Shown here one piece after another: positions 34,188 through 64,000 of a DNA stretch of 64,000 bases. The position numbers were made by a program, and so were the translations under genes. Each line of letters starts with the position of its first letter. The stretch's first letter is position 1. The notes under the pieces were generated by a model, which was given only the letters and a program-made list of their open reading frames with translations, was not told the DNA's origin and did not search any database. This stretch comes from Auanema rhodensis (lineage: Eukaryota; Animalia; Nematoda), in assembly GCA_964057225.1 (NCBI GenBank), contig OZ059897.1, positions 10,106,001 through 10,170,000 of the forward strand. The letters are read 5' to 3'.

Positions 34188-34939
34188 TGGTAGCTACAAA
34201 TCCTAATAGGAAAACATATGTTGTATCTGTTCCATTATCTACTATGTCGGCGCACAACCTACGAGATTGTCTGCTATTATCATTTTATTCAAAATATTCA
34301 ATTTCGTACTGGTTTTCTTAGTCACCGTCTAACATTCAAAAGAATATCACAACAGCGCTCATTTATTTTTTTTTACTCAAAAACAATATTTTTCTTGCCA
34401 TAAGTTCCTAAATTAATTTATTTTGTTTAATTATATAAATTTCATTATATATTAGTTAGATATTGATGAGATTGCCAACGATTTATATAATATACAGGCC
34501 ATATTTACATGCGCAAAATGAGAAGATAATGGAACAGATCTCTAATTTTTAAGTTATTGTTTTGATTTAATCTTATCTATCATTATTTAGTATTAATATA
34601 ACAGTTGTTTTCTCTTAATGTATCAACGATTAGAATGTGGAAGTGTAATAATAATGTTTTTTTAAGTTATAAATATCAACTTGATTATGAAAAATTTGAT
34701 TCAAAACTTCATATGTACAAGAAAACTCAAAGATAAATATCAAAGTAAAATGAAATGTATATTCAAAATGATATATCTTTCATCATAAATATTCTAAGAT
34801 AAAAAGAATGAATTTGTACTATATTTAACATCTAATATAATAATAATTATAGTTATAGAGTTATATAGATATATAAATAATCTCAAATATTTTGAATTTT
34901 GATATTAAGTGTTGTAAAGATCGCTCAACTCTTTTCGAG

Positions 34940-41731: not shown

Positions 41732-42185
41732 TGTTGAGATCATCTTTGTTTGTTGAGATTATTGAGAATAAAAATTTATTTTATAACTGTTCAAAAACAA
41801 AAAGGCGATTTCTTGCCACCGAGAACATCTTACATTTTGACAGATAACGAATTAAATAGTAAACTAATACTAATCGAACACTTAAAAAGATTAACAATTA
41901 CTAAAAAAAGATATTAGGAAGAAAGATCTTTAAACAATAGTTCTAATCTCAGGTTCATATATCATATTCAATATGTGATAACCTGCTAGTTATTAATTGT
42001 ATGGTTCATAAAATTTATTTTAAAAATTAGTTCAGGCTTAGCCCGTATTAATCTTATAAATTCTATGGTTAATAGAAAAATAATGTTGAGTAGATCGGGT
42101 TGACTTAATGAACATGATAATACTAAATGTATGAACACCCTATTTTCTTAAGGTAATTTATCGATTGAATAAAAAAAATTGAAAA

Positions 42186-42368
42186 ACACGCCCCCAAACA
42201 GCTGTCAAAAACATACTTTTGAGGGCGTCAACTGTTAAAAATATACTTTTGGGGCGCGTCAGCTGTCAAAAACATATTTTTGAGCCTCAGCTGTTAAAAT
42301 CATATTTTGGGCTCAGAGTTCATGGATTTTTCTTTTTTAAATTCAAAAATCATGATTTAAAGCATGAT
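42186..42368 (+). mobile_element. Remnant of a Maverick TIR (terminal repeat block, extreme terminus missing)
   Basis: cacgcccccaaacagctgtcaaaaacatac...aaaatcatgatttaaagcatgatt matches 43722-43875 with substitutions. Confidence 0.85.
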
Positions 42369-42464
42369 TGAACTGAATTTTTAAAAAATAGTTTAAGTTT
42401 GAAAAAGAATTTTATGCTGATTTCATTGTTTTGCATAATTAAAAATAAGAATTCATAATTTAAG

Positions 42465-42907
42465 ATGGTTAGAGGCAAGATAACTACCCCTGAAGTTCAA
42501 AACATCGTTCTTAGCATGAAGAATAAAGGGTTCAGCGTACGGAAAAAGAGTCAGCTTCTGACCTTGCCGAAGAGTACGATTCAAAATATTTGGAAAGCTT
42601 CACAAGAATCATACCAAACGGAGACAAGAGGAAGAGGAAGAAAAACAACAGTAGGACAAGATAACTTATTAATTAAACTCGTAGAGCGGTATCCGGATAT
42701 CACGTCATTCGAGTTAAGCCAACATCTTCTAAGAATGTTCAGGATTAGGCTTAATCCTTCGGATATTCGACGAAGATTGTTGGCGAGAAATCTAAGAGCT
42801 CGAGTTCCTGCACGAAAGACTTTAATATCGGTTGGTAACAGGCAGAAGAGAATAGATTTTGCCCGAGAGCATTTAAACTGGACGTTCGAAGATTGGTCGT
42901 CTATAAT
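42465..42907 (+). pseudogene. Truncated Tc1-family transposase (DNA-binding part), interrupted by a Maverick terminus
   Basis: HTH-GRGRKTT...IRRRL...RIDFAREHLNWTFEDWSSII, cut just before the first catalytic Asp; the rest of ORF 42465..43103 is TIR read-through. Confidence 0.85.
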
Positions 42908-43056
42908 AGTAGAGAGCCATGCCGAATTTACTAACCACGCCCCCAAACAGTTGCTAAAAACATACTTTTCAGGGCGTCAGCTGCTAAAAACATACTTTTG
43001 GGGGCGTCAGCTGTCAAAATCATATTTTCGGCGTCAGCTGTCAAAAATATACTTTT
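42908..43056 (+). mobile_element. Second Maverick terminus remnant (related subfamily)
   Basis: Starts AGTAGAGAGCC followed by the gcgtcagctg repeat block; diverged from 43694. Confidence 0.85.
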
Positions 43057-43105
43057 CCTCCCGAGGCAGGCTCTCGAGCCTGCGCATGGATCAAAATGCA
43101 TGATT

Positions 43106-43408
43106 TTAAATCTTTTTTAAAATTATTTTAACTATAGGACCCAATTCAGTTCTTATCAGGTGTAGACCTGACATCAATCTTATTGGATGTTGGTTTCCCC
43201 ATATCTCCCACATGAAGTCAATGCCTACTAGAATGTCAGGTGTTACATTTCCACAAGTAATGTTTTCTAACGATAATTCTAGTGCTCTTATTGTATCTCT
43301 ATCCGATATGGACAATTTGGGTAATTCTAATACTCCTACAATTTTTTCTAATCCCAGACACGTGATTTTTTGCTGCCTTGGACCTAGTCGTATATGATTT
43401 TTTTCCAA
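43106..43408 (-). pseudogene. BEL/Pao LTR-retrotransposon aspartic peptidase-region fragment
   Basis: PDILVGIDFMWEI...LMSGLHLIRTELGPIV motif typical of BEL/Pao gag-pol; no flanking pol domains. Confidence 0.65.
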
Positions 43409-43693
43409 AACTCAGTTACGAAATTTACCCATTGCTTCTCAATTGTTTGTTGTTGAGAGCTTTGAATATTTTCCATTGCATGTATTTTCAATATACCGGT
43501 GTTATTGGTGAAAATATTGAAAACATTTCTGTATTAATTTGATAAAATTATTAGAATATGATAATATGGCTTACCCCTTTTTCCCTGATATACGATAATA
43601 AATTCCATATAATGTATCGTTTACCGTTTTCCTAAGATTTTCGTTTGATGCGATCCGTATGCAACATTTAGAACAGCAGAACATTGCCGCAGC

Positions 43694-44707
43694 AGTAGAG
43701 AGCCGTGCAAAATTTACTAACCACGCCCCCAAACAGCTGTCAAAAACATACTTTTGGGGGCGTCAGCTGCTAAAAACATACTTTTGGGGAGCGTCAGCTG
43801 TTAAAATCATATTTTGGCATCATGGTTCATGGATTTTCCTTTTTTAAATTTAAAAATCATGATTTAAAGCATGATTTTTTTTAAAATCAAATTTTAAATT
43901 TGTTTATTCAAATGTATGTATATAGTTTTAATTATTTTTAAATATATTAAGTAAAAATAAAAATTATAAATTTTAAATATTTAAATTATATTTAAATTTT
44001 ATATATATATAAATTATATTTAAACTTTAAATAATTAAATTATATTTAAATTTTATATATATAAATTATATTTAAACTTTAAATTTTATATATAAATTAT
44101 ATTTAAATATTTAAATATTTAAATATGTAAATTTGTTTTTAAATTTTATTTATTTCTTTATTTCTTTATTTCTTTATTAAATTTATTAATAATGTTTGTT
44201 TACTTATTTTGTTTATTTTTTATTGTATTGTGTTTGTATTGTTTTTATTTTAAAAAACAGTAAAATTTTTGCATGTATATCGTTTTGTTCACCGTACTTG
44301 TTATGGGTAATTCAATGGAACCCATATCGAAGGTTAATTCGATAAGAACGATATGAAATACCAAAATTTAATGGAACACATATCGAAAGTTAATTCGATA
44401 AGAACGATATGAAATAAAAAATTTAATGGAACACATATCGAAGGTTAATTCGATAAGAACGATATGAAATACCAAAATTTAATGGAACACATATCGAAGG
44501 TTAATTCGATAAGAACGACATTAAATTATTAATTTTTGAAATTACAAATTGTTATTAATTATATTTATTCTAACAAGTAAAGGTTTCAAATTATAATAAA
44601 AGATTAGTTTTAAACTTTATTTTACTAATATAACAATACAATAACTAAATAGAGCACACATTGAAGGTAAATACAATAAGATTAACAAACAGTTGCGCTG
44701 ACCTCAA
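43694..44707 (+). repeat. Maverick left terminal inverted repeat (~1014 bp)
   Basis: 44003-44707 is the reverse complement of 58427-59110; 43694-44005 matches 60996-61334. Confidence 0.95.
44314..44520 (+). repeat. 55-56 bp tandem repeat (~3.7 copies) inside the TIR; mirrored at ~58615-58820
   Basis: Unit atggaacacatatcgaaggttaattcgataagaacgatatgaaataccaaaattta starts at 44315, 44371, 44426 and 44482. Confidence 0.92.
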
Positions 44708-45176
44708 CGCACATCGATGGTTAATAAACACTAATAACTGCACTGTGGGGGTCTAAATATAGGATAATCATTTTAACATTTCAAAAGTTTTAGTTTCGTA
44801 ATATAATCATTATTAAATATTCAAGAATGAAATATTTTTTACATATAAAACGTTGGCAGTCATATGTTTTGTGGTACAATATGGGTTTAAAAGTATACTA
44901 TGATTAATATATGAGCTATTAAGCAAAGTTTAAAAAGCGTAAATGTTTTACAGAGATGGCTGTTGTTTATGGCACAAACGGTAAACAATAATGTTTAAAG
45001 AGATGTAAAAACTAATTAATATGCAGATTGTTTACAGGTTCAGAGTGCGCCAACTGCTGGCAACTGTCGATGAGATGAGTATATCTGCATAAATATGCTG
45101 TAAAATCTAATTAATAAAAGAATTTCATCAGCAAACTTGATTGTAACACAATGGGTTGTACTTTACAAAAATCTTT

Positions 45177-45186
45177 GTATAAAAGG
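45177..45186 (+). promoter_or_regulatory. Putative TATA box of the TIR-proximal gene
   Basis: GTATAAAAGG about 160 bp upstream of ATG 45337. Confidence 0.5.
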
Positions 45187-45336
45187 TTGGCAATTTTGCA
45201 ACATTTACATTTCAGCTCTGCCGACTATCCGAGGATCCGACGTTTCACCATCTCCTGCCACTCTTTGCCATTCGCCATAGACTGCTCCTCTCTGCAAGTT
45301 TGCCTTATATTTTAGAAAGTTGGATCTTTAGCGGAA

Positions 45337-45925
45337 ATGAAGCGTGCTGTACTTGCTGATGTGACAAATGTTGTGCGCAAATCGCCTGAACCTCAAGTAC
45401 CACGACCACCCACACCAGCTCCAAATTTTACAAGTTTTGGTATGAACCTTAACTTGTATTTTTTAAATCTTTAATTTAGATTCACCAATAAAGCAGATGG
45501 AGATTCTGAGAGAGAGCACTCCACCAAGGAGTGTATTAATGAGACCAATTTGTCTCTGCAAAACTTGTAGGGAATCATTGCAGGTTATAGACGAGTATCA
45601 CTGTTTCAGCCTCTGTATAAAGTGTAGAGGAAGGAATGATGCGTTGGGTCTTTTGAAGGAATTTCGTCACTATAAGCCCGAAAAGTTCTCTATTAATGTA
45701 AGCTTGCATATTTATTTATTTTCAATTTTATCATTTTTTTTTTAGATGCGCTCTTATAACACCATGACGTGCAAGCAATTGTTGAACAATATGGGCTATA
45801 TTGTTATATATGCAGATGAGGCTACTGTAAAGACTTTTGGTTATAAGCAGAATGTATTCTACTTTAAACTAAGTCCAGAAGCACTCAACCTGAACATGTT
45901 TATCCGCTTTGATCCTTCATTTTGA
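45337..45925 (+). CDS. Maverick spliced accessory gene (exons 45337-45439, 45480-45697, 45746-45925; 166 aa): D-box, CDK-type sites, CxxC/CxxC zinc finger
   Basis: GT-AG introns of 40 and 48 nt keep frame: MKRAVLADVTNVVRKSPEPQVPRPPTPAPNFTSFDSPIKQMEILRESTPPRS...CKTC...CIKC...FDPSF*. Confidence 0.7.
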
Positions 45926-46220
45926 CTACAACAAGCACAAATAGTACAATTGGCGTTTTATTCTTGTTTTGTTATGTGGCATTTTTATATTCTCAGCCGT
46001 AACATTTTTTTTTTCCAGCTCTTGCGAATATCCATCAATGGCTCATCAATTGAGGACGAATGATCAACCAACTGGTAAGAATTTGAAAATTTGAATAGTC
46101 TACATTTTTTTTTTCCAGGTTGAATTGTTGTTTGTATTTTGCTGGTTTTTTATTGTTACATTATGCGATATATCAAATAAATCATTTATTATAATTACAA
46201 TTGTTTATAACATTGAAAAA

Positions 46221-47288
46221 TTATACATTTAAATTTTCTGCATCTATCCATTCATTAAAGTTGTCGGGATATCCACTCCATTTTACAAATACTTGACGTT
46301 TACCGCTTCGAGTACGCTCTTTTAAAACTTTTTCTATATAGTACTTGTTACTTTTATTAGTAGCCAAGACAAGTTCAGGTTCGTAGAATATTCCCTTTAT
46401 ACGTTCACCATTATAATCTACAAGTTTATACACGGTTGGGTTTCCGGTTACAACCTCATCAATTGTGAATAGCTCCATTGTATATCCAGACTCGTAGCTT
46501 TTTTCAAAAGTACGCCTATTTTTGCTTATGCGAACAGTATCACCAATTTTAAAGCGGCTTTTAACAGCTGGTGCATATTCTTCAATGAATATATTTGCTT
46601 TAACATCAATGGGCCGCATTTTAATTGACCGATTATAAGATTTATTTATTCCTTCAACCAAGTCATCTAGGATATCAATCCATCGATGATTATTCTTGTA
46701 ATAGAGATATTTCATCATGCGTGTTTTTAAAGTTCTATTTGCTCGCTCCACCATTGCAGCCTTTTGTGGTGAACTTGTAGATCCGTGCAGTATGGCAAAC
46801 TTTTTGAATAGTTTTTCACAATGACTATTATAAAACTCTGTGCCATTATCAGTAATCAACTGAATTGGTATAAAATTCTTGAATAAATTTTCAAATGCAC
46901 TAGCAACCTCTATACCACCTTTAGTTTTCAAAGGCCTAACATATAACATGCGTGTATAAACATCAATCATGGTCAACATGTAAGCATAGCCGTCGTTTAA
47001 TTTTTTATATTTTTGCATATCAACCAAATCTGCTTGCACTGTTAGAAATCGACCACATCCTCTAGTCTTTCTAGTCTGCATACGCATTCTGGTTGGTTTA
47101 TGTCGTGTAAAAGTTTCAGAATCTTGCAAAAAATCATCAACTTGTACCTTTGAAATGCCATGTTTTCGTGCTTGCGATAATAAATTCTTGGCTGATGTAT
47201 ATGAAGCTGGGTGTTTTATATCGTAATAAATGCTCGCCAAAATATCATTTCCATAATCTAATGTAGAACCTTTTACGACCTTGGCCAT
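46221..47288 (-). CDS. Maverick retroviral-like (c-int) integrase with C-terminal chromodomain
   Basis: DDE: QADLVDM, ITDNGTEF, AMVERANRTLK; chromodomain YYIEKVLKER...VKWSGYPDNFNEWI; ATG 47288 preferred. Confidence 0.96.
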   Translation of the reverse strand: MAKVVKGSTLDYGNDILASIYYDIKHPASYTSAKNLLSQARKHGISKVQVDDFLQDSETFTRHKPTRMRMQTRKTRGCGRFLTVQADLVDMQKYKKLNDGYAYMLTMIDVYTRMLYVRPLKTKGGIEVASAFENLFKNFIPIQLITDNGTEFYNSHCEKLFKKFAILHGSTSSPQKAAMVERANRTLKTRMMKYLYYKNNHRWIDILDDLVEGINKSYNRSIKMRPIDVKANIFIEEYAPAVKSRFKIGDTVRISKNRRTFEKSYESGYTMELFTIDEVVTGNPTVYKLVDYNGERIKGIFYEPELVLATNKSNKYYIEKVLKERTRSGKRQVFVKWSGYPDNFNEWIDAENLNV

Positions 47289-48278: not shown

Positions 48279-48926
48279 TTAAACACTAAACACATTTCTG
48301 GCAACATAAACAATAGGGTTCTCCGCTGTTATAACAGATAGTATACGCTGCTTCTCACTTGTTAAAGGATGATTGTCAATCAGTAAATGACTATAGGGAG
48401 TAGACATTGCATCATCATACGCCTCTAGAGCATTTTTGAAACGTGGCCCAAATAATTGCTGCAGACAATTACGTATTTGTAATATATCTGAATGACTTTT
48501 CATCAGTATTATATATGTACTATTGATTCGACTGGTCCTGTCCAGTTGAAATGTCGCTTGCACAAGATTAAACACTGCCAAATTCCAGTGATGAGCCCAT
48601 ACTGTAAAAATGTTGTTGAGTAATTCCTTTGCTGCTTTATTCGATGAAAAAAAGTTCATCAAATCATCCAGCACTAGTATAGTATTTACTCCCTTTTGTT
48701 CTTTTATCAAATCAGGATCAGGAGGCCCTTGAATAATTATTAAACGCTCATCATTTATTGGTACACCTGACGATGACCCACATTGACTAAACCAGAATAT
48801 TCTATCAATGGGGACGTTGAAAAACTTTTCAGTATTTTCACATATGTGCTTTATGAGGGTTGTTTTACCGCATTGGGTAGCACCTATTACAGTTGTCTGA
48901 CTGGGTAGTTTGAAGCTGAAAACCAT
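48279..48926 (-). CDS. A32-like genome-packaging ATPase
   Basis: Walker A GATQCGKT, Walker B ILVLDD, AHHWNLAVFNLVQ, SRINSTYII. Confidence 0.95.
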   Translation of the reverse strand: MVFSFKLPSQTTVIGATQCGKTTLIKHICENTEKFFNVPIDRIFWFSQCGSSSGVPINDERLIIIQGPPDPDLIKEQKGVNTILVLDDLMNFFSSNKAAKELLNNIFTVWAHHWNLAVFNLVQATFQLDRTSRINSTYIILMKSHSDILQIRNCLQQLFGPRFKNALEAYDDAMSTPYSHLLIDNHPLTSEKQRILSVITAENPIVYVARNVFSV

Positions 48927-49868: not shown

Positions 49869-50333
49869 TTATTCAACAGTTATACAATACCACATTTTTA
49901 TTTTCGAAGGTTTAAAAGATAGTTTAGGGCAGTTTTGTTTTTCGCTCGGCTCGTGTTGTGAATGTTCTCCGTCACTATTGCTGCGGCATCTTTTTGATTG
50001 GGTTGAATGTACAAACTCCTCAGCTTTTTCAAAGGGTTTGCTGGTATCATTTCCATCACCATCTTCACCATTCGTTCCATTATTATTATGAATACGCCGA
50101 ATATGACGCTCACAATTGAATCTTGTTCCAAAAGTTTCACTACAATGAGGGCACAAACGTCTACGAACACCATCCAAATGTCCATATTTTTGAATAAAGT
50201 CAGTATTGCTGATATAATTGTTACATATGGGTTGAATCCCTGCATGTCTTTTCAAAACGTGATCACTAAAATGCTTGGTTGAAGAAAATATTTCCTTGCA
50301 TGTACCACAATATTTGTTACATAAAAGTTCCAT
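49869..50333 (-). CDS. Maverick C2H2 zinc-finger accessory protein
   Basis: CGTCKEIFSSTKHFSDHVLKRH and CPHCSETFGTRFNCERHIRRIH; ATG 50333 preferred. Confidence 0.8.
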   Translation of the reverse strand: MELLCNKYCGTCKEIFSSTKHFSDHVLKRHAGIQPICNNYISNTDFIQKYGHLDGVRRRLCPHCSETFGTRFNCERHIRRIHNNNGTNGEDGDGNDTSKPFEKAEEFVHSTQSKRCRSNSDGEHSQHEPSEKQNCPKLSFKPSKIKMWYCITVE

Positions 50334-50374
50334 TAGAGGAAAATGAAAAACGACCACACGCAATCAACCCACTT

Positions 50375-50581
50375 TTATATAATGAGCAATAATATGACTA
50401 GTGTTGTACAAAAGCCCAATCCCAATGCTATACCTTTAATAAATGGCACTGAAATACATTTCAACATTCTCCTGTATAAAGGCGCTGGTTTAGATTGCTC
50501 CAACGTGTATTTGACACATAATTCACAGTGACAAGGAATATTCATAACTGACCACGTAATGTAGCAGGTTATTAATGACAA
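50375..50581 (-). CDS. Small putative tail-anchored membrane protein (start 50581 or 50545)
   Basis: CHCELC motif; C-terminal hydrophobic GIALGLGFCTTLVILLLII; fills the gap between PRO and ZnF. Confidence 0.55.
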   Translation of the reverse strand: MSLITCYITWSVMNIPCHCELCVKYTLEQSKPAPLYRRMLKCISVPFIKGIALGLGFCTTLVILLLII

Positions 50582-52881: not shown

Positions 52882-53019
52882 TGTATGTAATAAAATTCTT
52901 TAAAAGATTTAAGAATAAAATTTATTAATACAACTATTTTTAAAAATAAATACATGTACAATGATAAAATTTTATAAATACAAATATATACAAGATAAAA
53001 ATTTATAAATTCAAATATA

Positions 53020-56000
53020 TTATTCACAATAACCGTAGGGTAAAGTACTATAATCTTGAAGATAACAAAGTTTATCCATTACGACTCTAGTACTTTTTGT
53101 CATATCCATTGTGGATATGGCACCGAGTTGCCTCTTTAACAAGGTTGTGTTGGTTTTTAAAACCAATTTCTCTCCATCCATAACGAGACCGCGAACCAGT
53201 CGCTCCATACTTTCAAAGTTTACCACTGACGCTGCCGTGTGGTCCAACGTCTGTAAATTATAAAATTATTTGAAAAGTCAAAGCTCGTACTTACCACTCC
53301 CTTTGCCTTTGTTACATATTTTACATCACCAGCTGCATTTACAAGTTTATAACTATAAACTTTTGCCGCTGGTGACACAAACTTGGTCATTGACCAACCA
53401 TCGGGTATTTCAGAGGTTAGTTTACCTAACCATTCACCCTTCATATCCTCAATTGGATCTGGCTCATCCAGGCACCTTTGATAAATTAGTGAATCCGTGT
53501 CTGAATAATGTAAGTTTAAATTGAATACAAAGTATAACATTACCTGTATACACCAAATTCTTTCCAATTTTCTCCATTGCCTTATACAATAGTAGCCTTG
53601 CATGAGCGGTTGTATAGGCCGCAATAGCTACATTTGTAAAAGGCGGTGGTGCCAAATGTGAATCCTCTGGTACTGTTGTGCAGTACGCAACATTATCCAC
53701 AATTTTGAACCCAGTGAGTTCCCTTGCAGGATCAGTAATGATCCTACCAATTTCTGGGTCCTCAACACCAATAATCTTGGTTTGGGCTTTATCAGGTCTT
53801 TGACCCATTTTACCCCAGACACTATAAGCAAATTTGTAATGTATTGTTTTAAAAAGTTTACAAACCTATTTAGCTGCAGTTTGGCAATGCTACGCATGGC
53901 AGCATTCTTCTCACTTTTATTGCTCTCCAGAGCAACACCAGTGTTCTCCTCGTGCTCTTGGAGATAAATCACCTGTAAAATTCTATTTAATGTGATACTT
54001 TTGTTAAAACATACCTTTTCTTCCTCTGTCATGTTTGGCTTTGGCCAGCCCGACGCCTCTTGTTTAATTTTTATGTACTTTTGTACAAACTCTTTAAACA
54101 GGCCGCCTTGTTGCCATTCTTCCCAGTGCCACACCTCATGCACATTAAGCACTTTATAGCCACGTTGTATGGCACACTCGAGCTCAACATGTGTCACGGT
54201 TAGATGCAGCTTTCTAGCATTTACATCATTCTGGTGCTCACATGTTACATTTTTACTTTTGACTGCACAAGTGCGGCAGTTTGTAAAAATAAGTTTACCG
54301 GCAATACGTGTGCCTAATACAGGGTACAGCAAATTTGTGGGTGCAAGCACGTCACATTTTACTAGCCCCTTGTATGGGCAACATGTCTCAAAGCTTTTGA
54401 AACCCTCAGTAATAACTTTGGGATTACCTACAGGGTAATAGGCATCAAAAGCGGTGACATATGGATATAGTGAACAAAAGTCCACATACTCGAGCGAGTA
54501 TCTATCCGAAGCTTGTGCCAAAAGCTTATATGTCTGGGTGCGGCCACCGGTAAAGGCATCTCTAGGTGCCAAGCGTGTAACAACATTTGTTTCACGCATA
54601 AATTTCGCCATTTCTTCATTGGCCGAAATTTGTGCATTAATTTCGTGCTCCCACACTGTGGTAACACTAATGCCTTGGCTTTGAATTGCTTCAAGCCTTT
54701 TCATGGTTTTATCATAAACCTAAATTTTAAAAATTAAAATGATTAAAAAAGTCACAATTACCTCTTCCATTGTTTCACCATTTCTGCCTGGTGCTATAGC
54801 GCTCTTGTTGGTGCACTGGGGGCAACCATGGTAAATACAACCATTAATCTACAAAAATTTGCACTTTTTACATTTATTACAAATTACTCACCTCATAGCC
54901 ATGATTGGCAACGGGGTCATAAGCATCGAGTAGATAGCGATGGCCATCTACTCTCACTGCAAATTCACCACCATTAAGCTTATGCATTAATGGGCGGCCC
55001 AATCCTTGTTCTAGCCATTTTATATACTTTATGGCTATTATGCTCTGCTTTTGACCGGCATAATAACCAGTCTCGGGCAGAATACCCACTTGGTTCTCTT
55101 TAATGTGGTTCATTTTCAACTGTAATATACTAGTTTTGAAAATGCTTGTATTTGAAAAAACTTGCCTGGAATAAAGAGAAACTGGCAAATGTCATACACT
55201 GTATGACAGGGTTCCAGCCAGTGGTGGCGGTTGCCAACTTCATGTAAACTTTCATACAGTTGGTTAAAATACGGACATCTGTCCTACAATATTCCAAAAG
55301 CTCTTCATCAAAATCAAACGCTCTTTGATTACGCTCTTCATACCAAATATTGAATGAAGCTAGGTCTTCTGCTTTCATTCTAGCAGTACAATAGTACTGT
55401 TTTGGTGGTAAAGATGGTAACACTTTGCCATAATTTATTGGATGGTTAAAGAGGTAAGGAAACTGTCCTTTACTCATATAAGGTACACCAAATGCCTTGG
55501 GTAACGCTGATAGGGGTAAAGGCACTAATAAATAACTATCTTTAAAATATAAATGATTAAATTTTTGACCTCTTAAAGGCTTGACAACCATGCTTATAAT
55601 CTTGGTCCCATTTAAAATTGGATCAGGATATATACCACGGTTTATCAGCCTAGACACCAAGAAATGTATGTCAAAGCGTGAACCATTATGCGCAATCAAA
55701 ATTGCATTATCATTCTCAACAGAGTTGAGTAACCAATCAAGGAAACGATCTGTTACAGACCATTCACTATCACCTTGTTGATACCCAAAATGGCCCTCCT
55801 TGGTTGTGCATTTTTCACATGAGTTGGCATCTATACAACTTTCACAAAATTTATTATACACAACCATATTGGGCCATTGTTCATCTGCATATTCATGAAC
55901 ATTTGTACCGCTTTTTAACACAACCGTTTCAAAGTCATAGAATATAATCTTAAACAAGTAAGCATTACACTTGTAAAGATGTAAAATACAAACCTTGTAT

Positions 56001-58219
56001 TTTTCTTGCCTCTTTTTTAACTGATCCTTCTTCTTGTCGTTAGGTGGTACCCAACAACAAGAATGATCTTCAGGCTTTGTTTGTCCACACTTTTTGCAAA
56101 ATTTCTCATTGCAATTGTGCGGTCTATCTGCACGCACCCTGTGATAATGATCACAGTTTTCACATGTCTGAATTTAGTCTTGTAAAATTTTATATATATT
56201 TTTTAAATTACCTTAAACATTCGACATGTTTTTCTAATATGCCTGTCAAAGCATTGACGAGTTTTAAACAAAACTCTACAACTATCACATCTTATGCTAC
56301 TTTCAACCACATTTTCCATCGAATTACATTTTAAGGTGTGGCATTTCTTACACTTGGCTTTACATCTATGCAACACTGTTTTGTAAGATAATTTACAGTG
56401 TTGGCATATAATACCATCAAAAATCTGTGATCTACTACAAGTTGTAATACAGTCATAATGATTATTTCGGTAGCCTAGTGTTACCACTTTGCTAGCCGTT
56501 TCATTAAAGATACGCTGAATAGCGTACATACGCTGTCCAGGTGGCCTAGCGTATACTACAAACTTATAGTCTGTATTACAACTTGCAATAATATTTAAAT
56601 GGTTCAAATTATAATTTGGTAAATGTACAGAAATACCACACCTATTCAATAAATTGATATGATGTGGTTGATTTGGCAACAAGATGTAGTTGCGACGAAG
56701 ATTTTGAATCCTCCGCTTCTCAACAACATCTTCTGCTGCCTCTTCATCGGCTCTCCACATTCCCACAACTGCTGCTCTAGCCAGGCAATGTGTATCAGTG
56801 TTCTCAATTGTGCCAGGTATTTTGAGTTCGGCATCAAAATAGAAACCAACTCTACCTTCACCAGGCATCAGGCTTGGTTGCACTGGTCTCTCATCAAACA
56901 CATACATTTCAATATTCATTGCCTGGCTAATTACAGCCTCTCGCTTTGATTGCTGCACCTTGCTGATGGCATTCATGATGGCAACGCCATCCAAATGCTC
57001 CCTTCTACGGAAATCCATAAATATGGATCCCTTTTCAAAGGATGGGTGCTCTATTGATAAACAAAATAGCGCTTTTTGTTTATCTGGCACACCACTTTCA
57101 GCAAGGCACCGATCAAGAAACTCATTAAATAGCCGCGGCATGACAACATGCATTGGCTCATTAATGGCTTCCAAATGTGGGAACGTGAGCGATCTAACGA
57201 CCACGTTGGTGAACCGACCAGTTCGTTTTATGCGTCGGTGTGACCACTATAATACATATTTTTTATAATGGTTATACGCTTTTAATTTAAATATAAATAA
57301 TTTTTGTTTATAACTTTTAATAAATTTACTTTTCTTTAAATTATTTTTATATTCTTTTATTAAAATTAAAAGGTATTTGATTTTTAAATATAAAGATTTT
57401 TTTTTTTATCAACTTTGAAAAAACTTTTATAAACATTTGTTAATGTTTAAAAATTAATGAGATGGTGTTTTATTATTTTACTAGTTCAAAATGTTTGAAA
57501 TATTTATAGTTTGTAAGAATTCAAAATTGGTTGAAAGAAAGATAGATAGTGAGATGAAATGTAAAGATTTTAAAATGAATGCTGTTCAAAAGAATGAATA
57601 TGTAAATTTCAAAATACTTGCAATTTGTTTGATAAAAGATATAGATTGAGATGAAATGTAAAGATGAGAAAGAGAGAATTTTATGAATGCAATTGAAAAA
57701 GAGAAATAAATTTCAAAATGTTTTCAAAATATGCAACTGGAGCAAGAGAAAATTTCATGTTTCAAAAGATATATTATGAAATGATATGTAAATAAAAGAT
57801 CGCACCTCTATTTTACAGACATCGTTGAATGCCGCTCCATATCCGACTTGCCCTCCACTGGTTGATGGGGTAGCGGGATCCCATTCTCTTAAAAAGAAAA
57901 AACTAATTGTTATAATTTTTAATATCGCTTACTCATCACTGTCATCCAAGGTTATTACTTCAATAACCCTTGATGATGAGGGCCCACTGTTAAAAGTGGG
58001 TGATGTGGGCTCACAGAGCTCGATCCCACCAGCCTCGGTAAACTTTATACGTTTACTAAAAAAACAAAATATATATAAAGATTCAAAATATTGTTAAATT
58101 ACCTGAGCTGATTAATCTCTTCATAATCAAATCCTAGCTCTTCACATAAACGTTTATAACTGAAAAAAGAAAAAGTTTACAAACAAATAAACAAAAAGAC
58201 ACAACCTATTAGCAGCCAT
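53020..58219 (-). CDS. Protein-primed DNA polymerase B, 14 exons, 1369 aa (TP region, OTU-like, zinc fingers, 3'-5' exonuclease, Vsr-like insert, polymerase)
   Basis: Exons 58219-58206, 58159-58103, 58055-57933, 57887-57806, 57246-56212, 56167-55994, 55948-55166, 55119-54892, 54848-54762, 54719-54015, 53972-53866, 53821-53544, 53500-53295, 53250-53020 sum to 4110 nt; motifs YDFET, AHNGSRFD, YCRTDV, DFCSLYP, KLQLNSVWGK, YTDTDS, KVY, TLPYGY; the first four exons are less certain. Confidence 0.92.
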
Positions 58220-58426
58220 TGTACCTTGATATAATGAATATATCAGTCTACACATTGCTGTTGGCATTGTAATTTGTTATGTAACATGGATTTGGGTACA
58301 GCTGTCAAAACTAGCAGTTGCGATAAACTTTAAAATAAATAAGCTTATTGAATACATCTGTTTTTATTGTCCCCATCGGATTAATTTTTGTTATTAGTTC
58401 TTATTAAATTAACTTTATGCGTTTCA

Positions 58427-59110
58427 TTGAGGTCAGCGCAACTGTTTGTTAATCTTATTGTATTTACCTTCAATGTGTGCTCTATTTAGTTATTGTATTG
58501 TTATATTAGTAAAATAAAGTTTAAAACTAATCTTTTATTATAATTTGAAACCTTTACTTGTTAGAATAAATATAATTAATAACAATTTGTAATTTCAAAA
58601 ATTAATAATTTAATGTCGTTCTTATCGAATTAACTTTCGATATGTGTTCCATTAAATTTTGGTATTTTATATCGTTCTTATCGAATTAACCTTCGATATG
58701 TGTTCCATTAAATTTTGTATTTCATATCGTTCTTATCGAATTAACCTTCGATATGTGTTCCATTGAATTTTGTATTTCATATCGTTCTTATCGAATTAAC
58801 CTTCGATATGTGTTCCATTGAATTACCCATAACAAGTACGGTGAACAAAACGATATACATGCAAAAATTTTACTGTTCTTTAAAATAAAAACAATACAAA
58901 CACAATACAATAAAAAATAAACAAAATAAGTAAACAAACATTATTAATAAATTTAATAAATAAATAAAATTTAAAAAACAAATTTACATATTTAAATATT
59001 TAAATATTTAAATATAATTTATATATAAAATTTAAAGTTTAAATAAAATTTATATATATAAAATTTAAATATAATTTAAATATTTAAAGTTTAAATATAA
59101 TTTATATATA
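58427..59110 (-). repeat. Maverick right TIR, inner part (cut by Tc1 at a TA)
   Basis: Reverse complement of 44003-44707 with few differences. Confidence 0.95.
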
Positions 59111-60469
59111 CAGTCATGTGTAAAAGAAAAAGGGCAAAACTTTCGAATGGTCTCCTGAAGTAGTGAGACTACAAAAAATTAAAACTATGAAAAATAGAAA
59201 TGGTGAGCAGACCACAAATCGAAAAATGCAAAAAAAACCAAAAAATTAAGACTTTATTAATATTTTGTCGGATACCCGAAATTATCAATCACAGCTTTGA
59301 GCCTTCTATTCATCGAATTGACGAGCTTCTTCAAAATACCCGGAGAAGTTTCTCGCCAGAGGATTCTTAGGCATCTGAACTTCTCGTCCTTGTTCGATGA
59401 CGGAAATTGAGCCGCCCTTCTTCCCAAATCTCTCCATAGATGTTCGATCGGATTCAGATCGGGCGATTGACTAGGCCAGGGTAAGAGAGTGACCCTATTC
59501 TGCTGAAACCACTGTTTAGTTGAATGAGCAGTGTGCTTTGGGTCGTTGTCCTGCTGGAAGATGAATCTATTCCGCGTGCGGAATCGATCCAAAGCATACG
59601 GCAGGAAGACTTCAGAGAGAATATTCTGATAGTCGGAAGCACACATGCGTCCTTCAATCCTAAACAGTGGTCCAACTTCCTCGCTGGTGAAACAACCCCA
59701 CACCATTACGTTTCCACCTCCATGTTTGAAGGAAGGCTTTAAATAACGGTGGTTGTAACGCTCACCAACGGGCCTTCTGACAAAGCCAGGTCCATCATTG
59801 CCAAAAAGGCAGAATTTGCTCTCATCTGTGAAGATGACTCTGCTCCAATCTTCTGGTGTCCAATGAAGATGAGCCCGAGCAAATTCTAGCCTCGCTTGCC
59901 GGTTCTTGGCACTAACAAGCGGTTTGATGGCAGGTCTTCTTGCTCTCAAACCACGCTTCAGGAGACGCCTTCTAATATTGCTAGGGTCAAGATTGACCCT
60001 ATACATCATAGTAAGGTGTTCTGTCAGCTGTTTTGACGTCAATTCTGGATGACGTTGAGCCAAGCGGACCATGGTGTTGTCCTGTGATGGTGTGGTCTTC
60101 GGTGGGCGCCCTGGTTTTGTCTTCTTTATCATTGCTACACCTTGGCTGTGATCCTTGATGATGGCTTGAACGCAGCTCTTCGAGATAGCCGTAAAAGCAG
60201 CAATTTTTCGGGTTGCAAACCCTTCGTCTTTGAGCCTGAGGACTGTCTCCCTCATCTCGTTGCTGTATCTTCTGCCTTGAACCATCTAAATTTGCATATT
60301 AAAAATGAAGCTGAATCATTTTAATTTCCAAAATAATACATTTCAAAGTTAGTTTTAAAAAATGAATTCAGCTCCATTTTTTAGCAACATTTCAGATTCC
60401 TAAATTGTAGTCTGAGCTCCAGATTCTAATATTTTCTAAATCTTGCCCTTTTTCTTTTACACATGACTG
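59111..60469 (-). mobile_element. Tc1-family DNA transposon, intact copy (1359 bp)
   Basis: 27-bp TIRs CAGTCATGTGTAAAAGAAAAAGGGCAA with TA on both sides. Confidence 0.97.
59257..60285 (-). CDS. Tc1 DD34E transposase (342 aa)
   Basis: GRPPKT, FTDESKF, QQDNDPKH, SPDLNPIEHLW; 34 residues between the second D and E. Confidence 0.97.
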   Translation of the reverse strand: MVQGRRYSNEMRETVLRLKDEGFATRKIAAFTAISKSCVQAIIKDHSQGVAMIKKTKPGRPPKTTPSQDNTMVRLAQRHPELTSKQLTEHLTMMYRVNLDPSNIRRRLLKRGLRARRPAIKPLVSAKNRQARLEFARAHLHWTPEDWSRVIFTDESKFCLFGNDGPGFVRRPVGERYNHRYLKPSFKHGGGNVMVWGCFTSEEVGPLFRIEGRMCASDYQNILSEVFLPYALDRFRTRNRFIFQQDNDPKHTAHSTKQWFQQNRVTLLPWPSQSPDLNPIEHLWRDLGRRAAQFPSSNKDEKFRCLRILWRETSPGILKKLVNSMNRRLKAVIDNFGYPTKY

Positions 60470-60995
60470 TATGTGCTGCTGCTATGAAAGAATCTCTTTC
60501 AATTCAGGGAGTTAATATTTTTTTTAATTACTTAGATCTTTTCAGATCTCTAGTATTAAGCTTCTCCATAAGTTTTATCCTTGCTGGAATGAGGGGTTGC
60601 CTTACATATTAGTATCTAGGTTGGTAAATCATGAAACGGGTGATGACAATGAGCACATTAATAAGTTAAAGGATGTAATAGGAAAAGGGAATCGAGGGAT
60701 AATTGAGGTATCTTTATTTTTTCTAACTTTATTATTTTTGGTTTGATTATATTCACAGGGGCCTAAAAGAGAAACCTATGGCGTATATAACGTTATAGGA
60801 AAAAAAGAGACATAGGGAGATTTTATATTACAGATGTGTTACATAGAGCCTTGTTTGCACAGTAAGTTTTTTTTTTCGCACAAGCAATACTTTCGATATA
60901 GCTCGCAAGATGGCAATCACAACATCCACTTGAAGACATTGGAAGGTACGGAAATCATGATGAGAGCATCCTGGAATATTGCGAACATAGCTGCG

Positions 60996-61334
60996 AGTAG
61001 AGAGCCGTGCAAAATTTACTAACCACGCCCCCAAACAGCTGTCAAAAACATACTTTTGGGGGCGTCAGCTGCTAAAAACATACTTTTGGGGCGCGTCAGC
61101 TGTCAAAAACATATTTTTGAGCGTCAGCTGTTAAAATCATATTTTGGGATCATGGTTCATGGATTCTCCTTTTTTAAATTTAAAAATCATGATTTAAAGC
61201 ATGATTTTTTTTTAAAATCAAATTTAAATATGCTTTTTCAAATGTATGTATATATTTTTAATTATTTTTAAATATATTAAGTAAAAATAAAAATCTTAAT
61301 TTTAAATATTTAAATTATATTTAAATTTTATATA
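60996..61334 (+). mobile_element. Displaced and inverted outer end of the Maverick right TIR
   Basis: AGTAGAGAG terminus preceded by GCTGCG, the reverse complement of the left TSD CGCAGC. Confidence 0.92.
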
Positions 61335-62677
61335 CAGTCATGTGTAAAAGAAAAAGGGCAAAACTTTCGAATGGTCTACTGAAGTAGTGAGACTACAAAA
61401 AATTAAAAACTATGAAAAATAGAAATGGTGAGCAGACCACAAATCGAAAAATGCAAAAAAAACCAAAAAATTAAGACTTTATTAATATTTTGTCGGATAC
61501 CCGAAATTATCAATCACAGCTTTGAGCCTTCTATTCATCGAATTGACGAGCTTCTTCAAAATACCCGGAGAAGTTTCTCGCCAGAGGATTCTTAGGCATC
61601 TGAACTTCTCGTCCTTGTTCGATGACGGAAATTTTCTTCTTCCCAAATCTCTCCATAGATGTTCGATCGGATTCAGATCGGGCGATTGACTAGGCCAGGG
61701 TAAGAGAGTGACCCTATTCTGCTGAAACCACTGTTTAGTTGTGCTTTGGGTCGTTGTCCTGCTGGAAGATGAATCTATTCCGCGTGCGGAATCGATCCAA
61801 AGCATACGGCAGGAAGACTTCAGAGAGAATATTCTGATAGTCGGAAGCACACATGCGTCCTTCAATCCTAAACAGTGGTCCAACTTCCTCGCTGGTGAAA
61901 CAACCCCACACCATTACGTTTCCACCTCCATGTTTGAAGGAAGGCTTTAAATAACGGTGGTTGTAACGCTCACCAACGGGCCTTCTGACAAAGCCAGGTC
62001 CATCATTGCCAAAAAGGCAGAATTTGCTCTCATCTGTGAAGATGACTCTGCTCCAATCTTCTGGTGTCCAATGAAGATGAGCCCGAGCAAATTCTAGCCT
62101 CGCTTGCCGGTTCTTGGCACTAACAAGCGGTTTGATGGCAGGTCTTCTTGCTCTCAAACCACGCTTCAGGAGACGCCTTCTAATATTGCTAGGGTCAAGA
62201 TTGACCCTATACATCATAGTAAGGTGTTCTGTCAGCTGTTTTGACGTCAATTCTGGATGACGTTGAGCCAAGCGGACCATGGTGTTGTCCTGTGATGGTG
62301 TGGTCTTCGGTGGGCGCCCTGGTTTTGTCTTCTTTATCATTGCTACTCCTTGGCTGTGATCCTTGATGATGGCTTGAACGCAGCTCTTCGAGATAGCCGT
62401 AAAAGCAGCAATTTTTCGGGTTGCAAACCCTTCGTCTTTGAGCCTGAGGACTGTCTCCCTCATCTCGTTGCTGTATCTTCTGCCTTGAACCATCTAAATT
62501 TGCATATTAAAAATGAAGCTGAATCATTTTAATTTCCAAAATAATACATTTCAAAGTTAGTTTTAAAAAATGAATTCAGCTCCATTTTTTAGCAACATTT
62601 CAGATTCCTAAATTGTAGTCTGAGCTCCAGATTCTAATATTTTCTAAATCTTGCCCTTTTTCTTTTACACATGACTG
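61335..62677 (-). mobile_element. Tc1 copy 2, defective (frameshifted transposase 61482-62493)
   Basis: Same TIRs as copy 1; 11-bp deletion after QQDNDPKH and a net 6-bp deletion after DLGRR. Confidence 0.95.
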
Positions 62678-63203
62678 TATGTGCTGCTGCTATGAAAGAA
62701 TCTCTTTCAATTCAGGGAGTTAATATTTTTTTTAATTACTTAGATCTTTTCAGATCTCTAGTATTAAGCTTCTCCATAAGTTTTATCCTTGCTGGAATGA
62801 GGGGTTGCCTTACATATTAGTATCTAGGTTGGTAAATCATGAAACGGGTGATGACAATGAGCACATTAATAAGTTAAAGGATGTAATAGGAAAAGGGAAT
62901 CGAGGGATAATTGAGGTATCTTTATTTTTTCTAACTTTATTATTTTTGGTTTGATTATATTCACAGGGGCCTAAAAGAGAAACCTATGGCGTATATAACG
63001 TTATAGGAAAAAAAGAGACATAGGGAGATTTTATATTACAGATGTGTTACATAGAGCCTTGTTTGCACAGTAAGTTTTTTTTTTCGCACAAGCAATACTT
63101 TCGATATAGCTCGCAAGATGGCAATCACAACATCCACTTGAAGACATTGGAAGGTACGGAAATCATGATGAGAGCATCCTGGAATATTGCGAACATAGCT
63201 GCG

Positions 63204-63542
63204 AGTAGAGAGCCGTGCAAAATTTACTAACCACGCCCCCAAACAGCTGTCAAAAACATACTTTTGGGGGCGTCAGCTGCTAAAAACATACTTTTGGGGC
63301 GCGTCAGCTGTCAAAAACATATTTTTGAGCGTCAGCTGTTAAAATCATATTTTGGGATCATGGTTCATGGATTCTCCTTTTTTAAATTTAAAAATCATGA
63401 TTTAAAGCATGATTTTTTTTTAAAATCAAATTTAAATATGCTTTTTCAAATGTATGTATATATTTTTAATTATTTTTAAATATATTAAGTAAAAATAAAA
63501 ATCTTAATTTTAAATATTTAAATTATATTTAAATTTTATATA
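63204..63542 (+). mobile_element. Duplicate of the displaced Maverick TIR end
   Basis: Appears identical to 60996-61334, offset 2208 bp. Confidence 0.92.
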
Positions 63543-64000
63543 CAGTCATGTGTAAAAGAAAAAGGGCAAAACTTTCGAATGGTCTACTGAAGTAGTGAGA
63601 CTACAAAAAATTAAAAACTATGAAAAATAGAAATGGTGAGCAGACCACAAATCGAAAAATGCAAAAAAAACCAAAAAATTAAGACTTTATTAATATTTTG
63701 TCGGATACCCGAAATTATCAATCACAGCTTTGAGCCTTCTATTCATCGAATTGACGAGCTTCTTCAAAATACCCGGAGAAGTTTCTCGCCAGAGGATTCT
63801 TAGGCATCTGAACTTCTCGTCCTTGTTCGATGACGGAAATTTTCTTCTTCCCAAATCTCTCCATAGATGTTCGATCGGATTCAGATCGGGCGATTGACTA
63901 GGCCAGGGTAAGAGAGTGACCCTATTCTGCTGAAACCACTGTTTAGTTGTGCTTTGGGTCGTTGTCCTGCTGGAAGATGAATCTATTCCGCGTGCGGAAT
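63543..64000 (-). mobile_element. Tc1 copy 3 (runs off the window), same deletions as copy 2
   Basis: Matches the sequence from 61335 onward. Confidence 0.93.

Follow-up and report, generated by a model that had tools for sequence, protein, structure and literature searches.

The question raised by a short stretch of plus-strand DNA near the left end of a Maverick element in the nematode Auanema rhodensis is whether it holds a real gene and, if so, whether that gene ties the element to the host cell cycle. The window, that is, the whole stretch of DNA analyzed here, spans 64,000 nt, and the first-pass annotation, made from its sequence alone, had proposed a gene with an APC/C destruction box (D-box), CDK sites, and a zinc finger. 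Our analysis revealed that this D-box gene is real: it is a spliced Maverick accessory gene under selection. Its motifs and reading frames suggest, at a probability that we place at roughly 45%, an early regulator that would be timed by the APC/C and would carry a splice switch.

The host element is a young, largely complete Maverick sitting in a Tc1/mariner tandem array. It is 15.1 kb long and is bounded at both ends by terminal inverted repeats (TIRs), the left arm lying at 44000-44707, with an outer end that a TA run leaves ill-defined, and the right arm, which pairs with it, at 58427-59110. The arms measure approximately 700 bp, which falls inside the range of 100-1,500 bp for Maverick/Polinton TIRs (PMC10748475, cited, like all sources below, from the accessible part of the text), and are identical at 674 of 683 aligned bases. 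Both element ends lie in TA runs, where a 2-bp reading of the target-site duplication, which is 5-8 bp in Maverick/Polinton elements, is indistinguishable from a 6-bp one. An integrase with a chromodomain (46221-47288, minus strand; PF00665, E 1.1e-08; PF00385, E 3.1e-08) is convergent to the D-box gene and bounds the cargo slot, and a protein-primed PolB was matched above the Pfam cut-off (PF03175, E 8.9e-24 and 1.7e-16). The protease match (PF00770, E 0.0015) was below the curated cut-off, as were those of the ATPase and the C2H2 protein, and the capsid genes were named from size and position, without a Pfam match. For the putative major capsid protein, 10 relatives were found at identities of 26-73%; those with names belong to Aphelenchoides/Aphelenchus and a moth. 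No fusogen-sized ORF was seen in the element. Around the TA-run insertion site, Tc1/mariner transposase units recur with a 2,208-bp period (42159-43999 and 59110-64000), and the TIRs themselves contain 55-56 bp tandem repeats (44309-44530 and 58599-58827), each with a near-palindromic core.

The structure of the D-box gene was read from assembled contigs, presumably derived from RNA, of four runs (X1 to X4) of a single study over 44700-46300; contig depth behind all splice joints was low (2.8-7.2), and parts of the element without contig cover were not counted as silent. The gene lies on the plus strand and begins with coding exon 1 (45337-45439), containing the D-box and two S/T-P sites, approximately 630 nt inside the left arm, which ends at 44707, rather than just inside the TIR as had been stated. 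Intron 1 (45440-45479; 40 nt, GT..AG, 20% GC) appeared as a 40-nt skip in X1 and X4, placed by the alignment 7 nt upstream of where the GT..AG sites would cut, and an X2 contig stopped exactly at 45439, its 15 loose letters reproducing the first letters of exon 2, while X3 had no cover there; the proposed joining of exon 1 to exon 2 was thus borne out. Exon 2a (45480-45566), encoding C59, C61, and the full CDK sites SPIK and TPPR, is followed by an alternatively removed intron of 43 nt (45567-45609; GT..AG), exon 2b (45610-45697), a 48-nt intron (45698-45745; GT..AG, phase 0) that was spliced out in X1, X2, and X3, and coding exon 3 (45746-45925), which starts with an ATG and encodes a predicted alpha/beta module of 59 aa. 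Joining 45337-45439, 45480-45697, and 45746-45925 yields 166 aa. The three exons and two introns proposed at first are therefore confirmed, although the 43-nt intron and a further one at 46075-46118 had been missed. Introns of the gene are 40-48 nt long with T-rich acceptors, which point to a nematode host; enrichment of TTTTCAG, a further sign of such a host, was weak (32 seen vs 22.6 expected; 7 of 100 shuffles).

The 43-nt intron was spliced out in X1 and X2, that is, in two of the four runs and two of the three informative ones (X3 being uninformative). Its removal shifts the frame and yields a 66-aa product that keeps the D-box, all four S/T-P sites, C59, and C61 but loses the rest of the Cys/His cluster along with exon 3. 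Exon 2b becomes 3' UTR in this short form and would encode C80/C83 and predicted helices in the long form, in which the retained 43 nt would add C64, H75, and C76. This truncating splice is previously unreported. The X4 contig enters the 43-nt segment by 29 nt, the bridging threshold being 31 nt, and none of the contigs from X1 to X4 spans the retained segment. No joint was seen in run X5 of a second study (share 0.09), whose cover was confined to 45879-46028.

Further variation was apparent in the same contigs. A 45394 C>G change in X1, X2, and X4, reflecting another allele or copy, converts residue 20 from Gln to Glu outside the motifs. Past the main stop, a fourth splice event removed a 44-nt intron (46075-46118) in X1 only, within a downstream region at 46060-46232 (plus strand) that carries AATAAA at 46176. 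Its removal creates a 42-aa hydrophobic ORF from the ATG at 46060, a possible second product unless the intron simply belongs to the 3' UTR; no Pfam match was found for the 37-aa second exon of this ORF.

Because the retained 43-nt segment is not covered end to end by any contig, we infer the 166-aa form from its open frame and from the selection signal. Beyond the 43-nt donor, the retained frame stays open for 103 codons, as in only 4 of 20,000 dinucleotide shuffles, and the 44 codons not explicable by the ATG of exon 3 itself were open in 470 of 20,000. The 43-nt segment has an exon-like GC content of 42%, compared with 17-23% in the other three introns. Codon usage, trained on the core ORFs of the element, favored the retained frame outright in four of the five coding segments, with another open frame scoring 0.21 vs 0.04 in exon 2a. 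A diverged expressed copy in X4 differs from exon 3 at 24 positions in 166 nt, of which 17 entered the codon-level count and seven unlisted ones fell outside it. These 17 differences lie on codon positions 7/1/9 and produce eight silent and six changed codons and no stop; with random placement, 3.3 codons would be expected to be silent (P 0.006) and 11.1 to change (P 0.0016). Exon 3 is thus under purifying selection, with mostly silent, codon-structured change, a pattern that might alternatively stem from translation started at the ATG of exon 3 itself. Since the truncating splice was seen in two of the three informative runs and the retained segment was bridged in none, the 166-aa protein may be a minor form.

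The D-box, RAVLADVTN at residues 3-11 (45343-45369, plus strand), lies at the N-terminus as first described and fits the extended consensus RxxLx[DE]ΦxN (PMC5717348) as well as the RxxL core, satisfying it at P1, P4, P6, P7, and P9. The same source gives preferences for a small unbranched residue at P3 and [N/S] at P10; Val occupies both positions here, off-consensus, so that the sequence departs from the 10-residue form RxxLx[DE]ΦxN[NS]. Six of its nine residues are the same as in the Hsl1 D-box peptide shown in PMC12401543. The surrounding segment is N-terminal and rich in Pro, which makes up 10 of 56 aa; it has lysines K2, K15, and K39, and residues 36-53 had pLDDT values below 50 in the exon-2 model. 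All four predicted S/T-P motifs (SPEP, TPAP, SPIK, and TPPR) are present, but only SPIK and TPPR have the full S/T-P-x-K/R consensus. In shuffles, which evaluated one motif chosen after the fact from many possible, P was 0.0016 for an extended D-box in the 166-aa product, 0.0003 both within the first 56 residues and for a match in the first 30, approximately 0.02 for at least two full CDK sites, and only 0.043 for at least four S/T-P motifs in the first 56 Pro-rich residues. Elsewhere in the element, the 11 further ORF segments contained no extended D-box and not even RxxLxxxxN. The D-box is therefore a good fit to the APC/C degron consensus and, as judged by its sequence, a candidate degron.

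The match could nonetheless be a coincidence, the gene encoding a real orphan accessory protein, likely with a zinc cluster, that has no link to the APC/C, and the 43-nt splice being a cryptic event of host splicing at a strong TTTCAG acceptor that dampens expression. The extended pattern does occur twice when the window is translated in six frames (127,996 residues), the other occurrence being at 34937 on the minus strand; D-box-like motifs are often predicted, and unproven, in viral proteins (PMC7307157); and one similar donor/TTTCAG pair turned up in the sense strand of intronless ORFs (6,024 bases). What renders coincidence unlikely, if by no means far-fetched, is the placement of the motif in a spliced gene, starting at residue 3, with five constrained positions fitting and two full CDK sites following, together with the low shuffle probability of an N-terminal match.

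Downstream of the CDK sites, the cysteines are spaced CxCxxC-x15-CxxC, with H75/C76 in between, and CKTC at 61 and CIKC at 80 form a paired CxxC in the long form only. The x13 spacing originally reported was a miscount, and CxxC-x13-CxxC was absent from the motif scan. From this arrangement we infer zinc binding by the Cys/His cluster. A likeness to E1A CR3 was considered and ruled out by the x15 spacing. The single-sequence model of exon 2 alone had a pLDDT of 58 and no fold match, the best E in BFVD being 4.1 and the best Z in VIA 3.1, and the models of exon 3 alone reached a pLDDT of 81.6 at best, with the other four at 55-66, and likewise found no fold match.

This architecture bears on whether the protein would be an APC/C substrate or, as the first-pass annotation also allowed, a pseudosubstrate. 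In the latter case, the D-box would dock on Cdh1/Cdc20-Apc10 and the zinc cluster would block ubiquitin transfer in the manner of Emi1, cells would be held in an S-like state suited to replication of the element, and the 66-aa form would simply compete. Emi1, a pseudosubstrate of APC/C-Cdh1, does share the order of D-box, linker, and Cys/His-rich zinc-binding region (ZBR) (PMC5717348), and targeting of the APC/C is known from several DNA viruses (PMC3390409). However, the protein differs from Emi1 in having its D-box at the very N-terminus, and the motif scan found no KEN, strict ABBA, or LRRL tail, the one relaxed ABBA-like match being inside a predicted beta-strand. Nor did sequence, Pfam, or fold comparison point to a ZBR: no exon had a Pfam match at E 0.1, and the low-confidence exon-2 model had a best Z of 3.1. 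Lysines flank the D-box, as a substrate requires. With a single D-box and none of these accessory motifs, the pseudosubstrate option is the weaker part of the original proposal, and we consider an Emi1-like inhibitor distinctly improbable. The substrate role is the one carried forward in our preferred reading.

The origin of the gene is a separate matter, since the element might have captured a nematode gene whose own cell-cycle degron was retained and whose product acts on the host, possibly selfishly, instead of timing the element. In nematode Mavericks, cargo genes such as wasp proteases and krma kinases bear introns and occupy a slot flanked by the left TIR on one side and the integrase on the other, in a GC-rich region of 2-5 kb (10.1101/2022.07.12.499685). 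The D-box gene has introns and the same position, and no homologue was found in the viral sets searched. However, the slot here is short (approximately 1.5 kb), its GC content is below that of the core (0.334 vs 0.368), and the codon usage of the gene fits the core genes of the element. Short GT..AG segments that are AT-rich are found in the polymerase region too, so that introns are no mark of cargo in this element. Moreover, the D-box gene encodes neither a protease nor a kinase, and has instead a D-box and an alternative truncating intron. Host-derived cargo is therefore a quite unlikely account of it.

Homology searches returned nothing usable for any part of the protein, and none led to a homologue of exon 1. 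Exon 2 gave one candidate among longer proteins, with none at E 0.1, and a best E of 1.2 against PDB sequences; its sole match among 1.84 billion representatives was a tandem-repeat protein, judged spurious. No homologues of exon 3 were found at near lengths, no match to exon 2 or 3 was found in viral contigs, and neither Pfam (E 0.1, any exon) nor PHROGs provided a credible match. Relatives of the capsid gene were found at 0 loci in viral contigs and at five loci in metagenomes (1.5-3.2 kb, 29-31% identity); these five loci, too short to reach the slot, gave no tblastn match to the exons of the D-box gene. The absence of homologues is weak evidence of novelty, because nematode mobile elements are sparsely represented in the collections and each exon was searched separately. 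Among the literature matches listed, from a search that lay outside most subscription journals, neither a Polinton-APC/C link nor an APC/C degron in Mavericks was found, and the accessible part of PMC10748475 contained no passage on such a gene. The D-box gene could be present among the annotations in the supplements of two nematode papers.

The upstream TATA-like box previously noted is indeed present, in the canonical form TATAAAAG, at 45178-45185 (plus strand), a predicted promoter 159 nt before the ATG, and this 8-mer is at chance level across the window (8 seen, 8.64 expected). The longest matching contig, from X4, begins at 45222, and an X3 contig with four differences crosses the TATA box. 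No TATA-like box was found within 200 nt of the ATGs of the capsid, ATPase, protease, and integrase genes. An E2F-like TTGGCGC at 45047-45053 was dismissed as being at chance level (11 seen vs 8.74 expected). Elsewhere in the element, a C2H2 zinc-finger gene (49872-50333, minus strand), covered by X1, X2, and X4 contigs, has TATAAAAG at 50372-50379, 46 nt ahead of the ATG; it is another candidate for an early regulator.

In the mechanism that we propose for an APC/C-timed regulator, host Pol II would transcribe the D-box gene early, using the TATA box. If the 43 nt are retained, a working effector with a zinc cluster and an alpha/beta module would be made; if they are spliced out, the effector would be switched off or a bare degron peptide left. 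Cdc20 or Cdh1 would recognize the D-box, with K15 and K39 accepting ubiquitin, and the D-box and nearby lysines would thereby confine the protein to S/G2/M, with CDK phosphorylation tuning its degradation. The effector may, as a guess, serve the element as a switch of transcription or replication, confined to cycling cells. A bolder version, in which an animal Maverick family has its own Emi1-like D-box and zinc-cluster APC/C regulator of independent origin, and in which the 43-nt switch between a full inhibitor and a bare degron peptide creates a cell-cycle-gated replication trigger, strikes us as a long shot.

Parallels to this arrangement exist in other systems. The left-end, TATA-driven E1A gene of adenovirus, a lineage related to Polintons, is spliced into 13S and 12S forms, and the alternative splicing removes a zinc finger (CxxC-x13-CxxC) in frame. 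The likeness to the D-box gene, also a left-end TATA gene in which a splice drops the putative zinc cluster, is one of analogy only, given the x15 spacing, the frameshift, and the lack of Rb motifs here. BPV E1 is reportedly an APC substrate. Viral regulators of the APC/C are known (PMC3390409, PMC7307157) and include HPV E2, parapoxvirus PACR, CAV apoptin, and HCMV UL21a (PMC3390409); they act through other described mechanisms, none comes from a Maverick, and the link in the present case is by motif. Closer at hand are the Oncoids of adintoviruses, small CxxC proteins with Rb-binding motifs (PMC8502044; PMC11071296), and such cell-cycle genes have already been proposed for Maverick/Polinton elements (PMC8502044). 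The D-box protein is likewise a small Maverick/Polinton product with cell-cycle short linear motifs beside a paired CxxC, but it has no match to LxCxE or CR1 in the motif scan, its motif points to the APC/C rather than Rb, and its gene is spliced and lies beside the integrase instead of upstream of PolB. The label of a new system, for which the locus was initially called the best candidate, is thus an overstatement, both the intron-bearing cargo slot (10.1101/2022.07.12.499685) and cell-cycle-motif Oncoids with CxxC pairs (PMC8502044) having been described.

In the accessible text of Widen et al., no transcription of Maverick genes was detectable in their element (10.1101/2022.07.12.499685). 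Here, an accessory gene is spliced in transcript-type contigs, is selected, and carries what appears to be a specific hook to the cell-cycle destruction machinery, and a splice choice drops the predicted folded half of its product. If the degron works, Maverick accessory genes would reach the APC/C as well as Rb, and the activity of the element may be gated by both cell-cycle phase and splicing, which bears on what wakes an integrated Maverick.

Additional features were observed elsewhere in the element. The polymerase region (53000-57250, minus strand) is broken into at least six ORF pieces; several of the breaks have short AT-rich GT..AG segments, and the gene appears to contain introns, whereas the core genes of the C. 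plicata Maverick are described as intronless (10.1101/2022.07.12.499685). Near the right TIR, at 57800-58220 on the minus strand, small exons lie between AT-rich GT..AG segments (58202-58160 and 58102-58056); they could be the 5' portion of the polymerase gene, or else a gene of their own. One frame of this region has a hydrophobic-then-acidic stretch that we take to resemble a SUMO-interacting motif. Finally, contigs of the same study at 85-90% identity (45776-45941, 48597-48761, and 50338-50464) revealed that at least one diverged sister Maverick is expressed.
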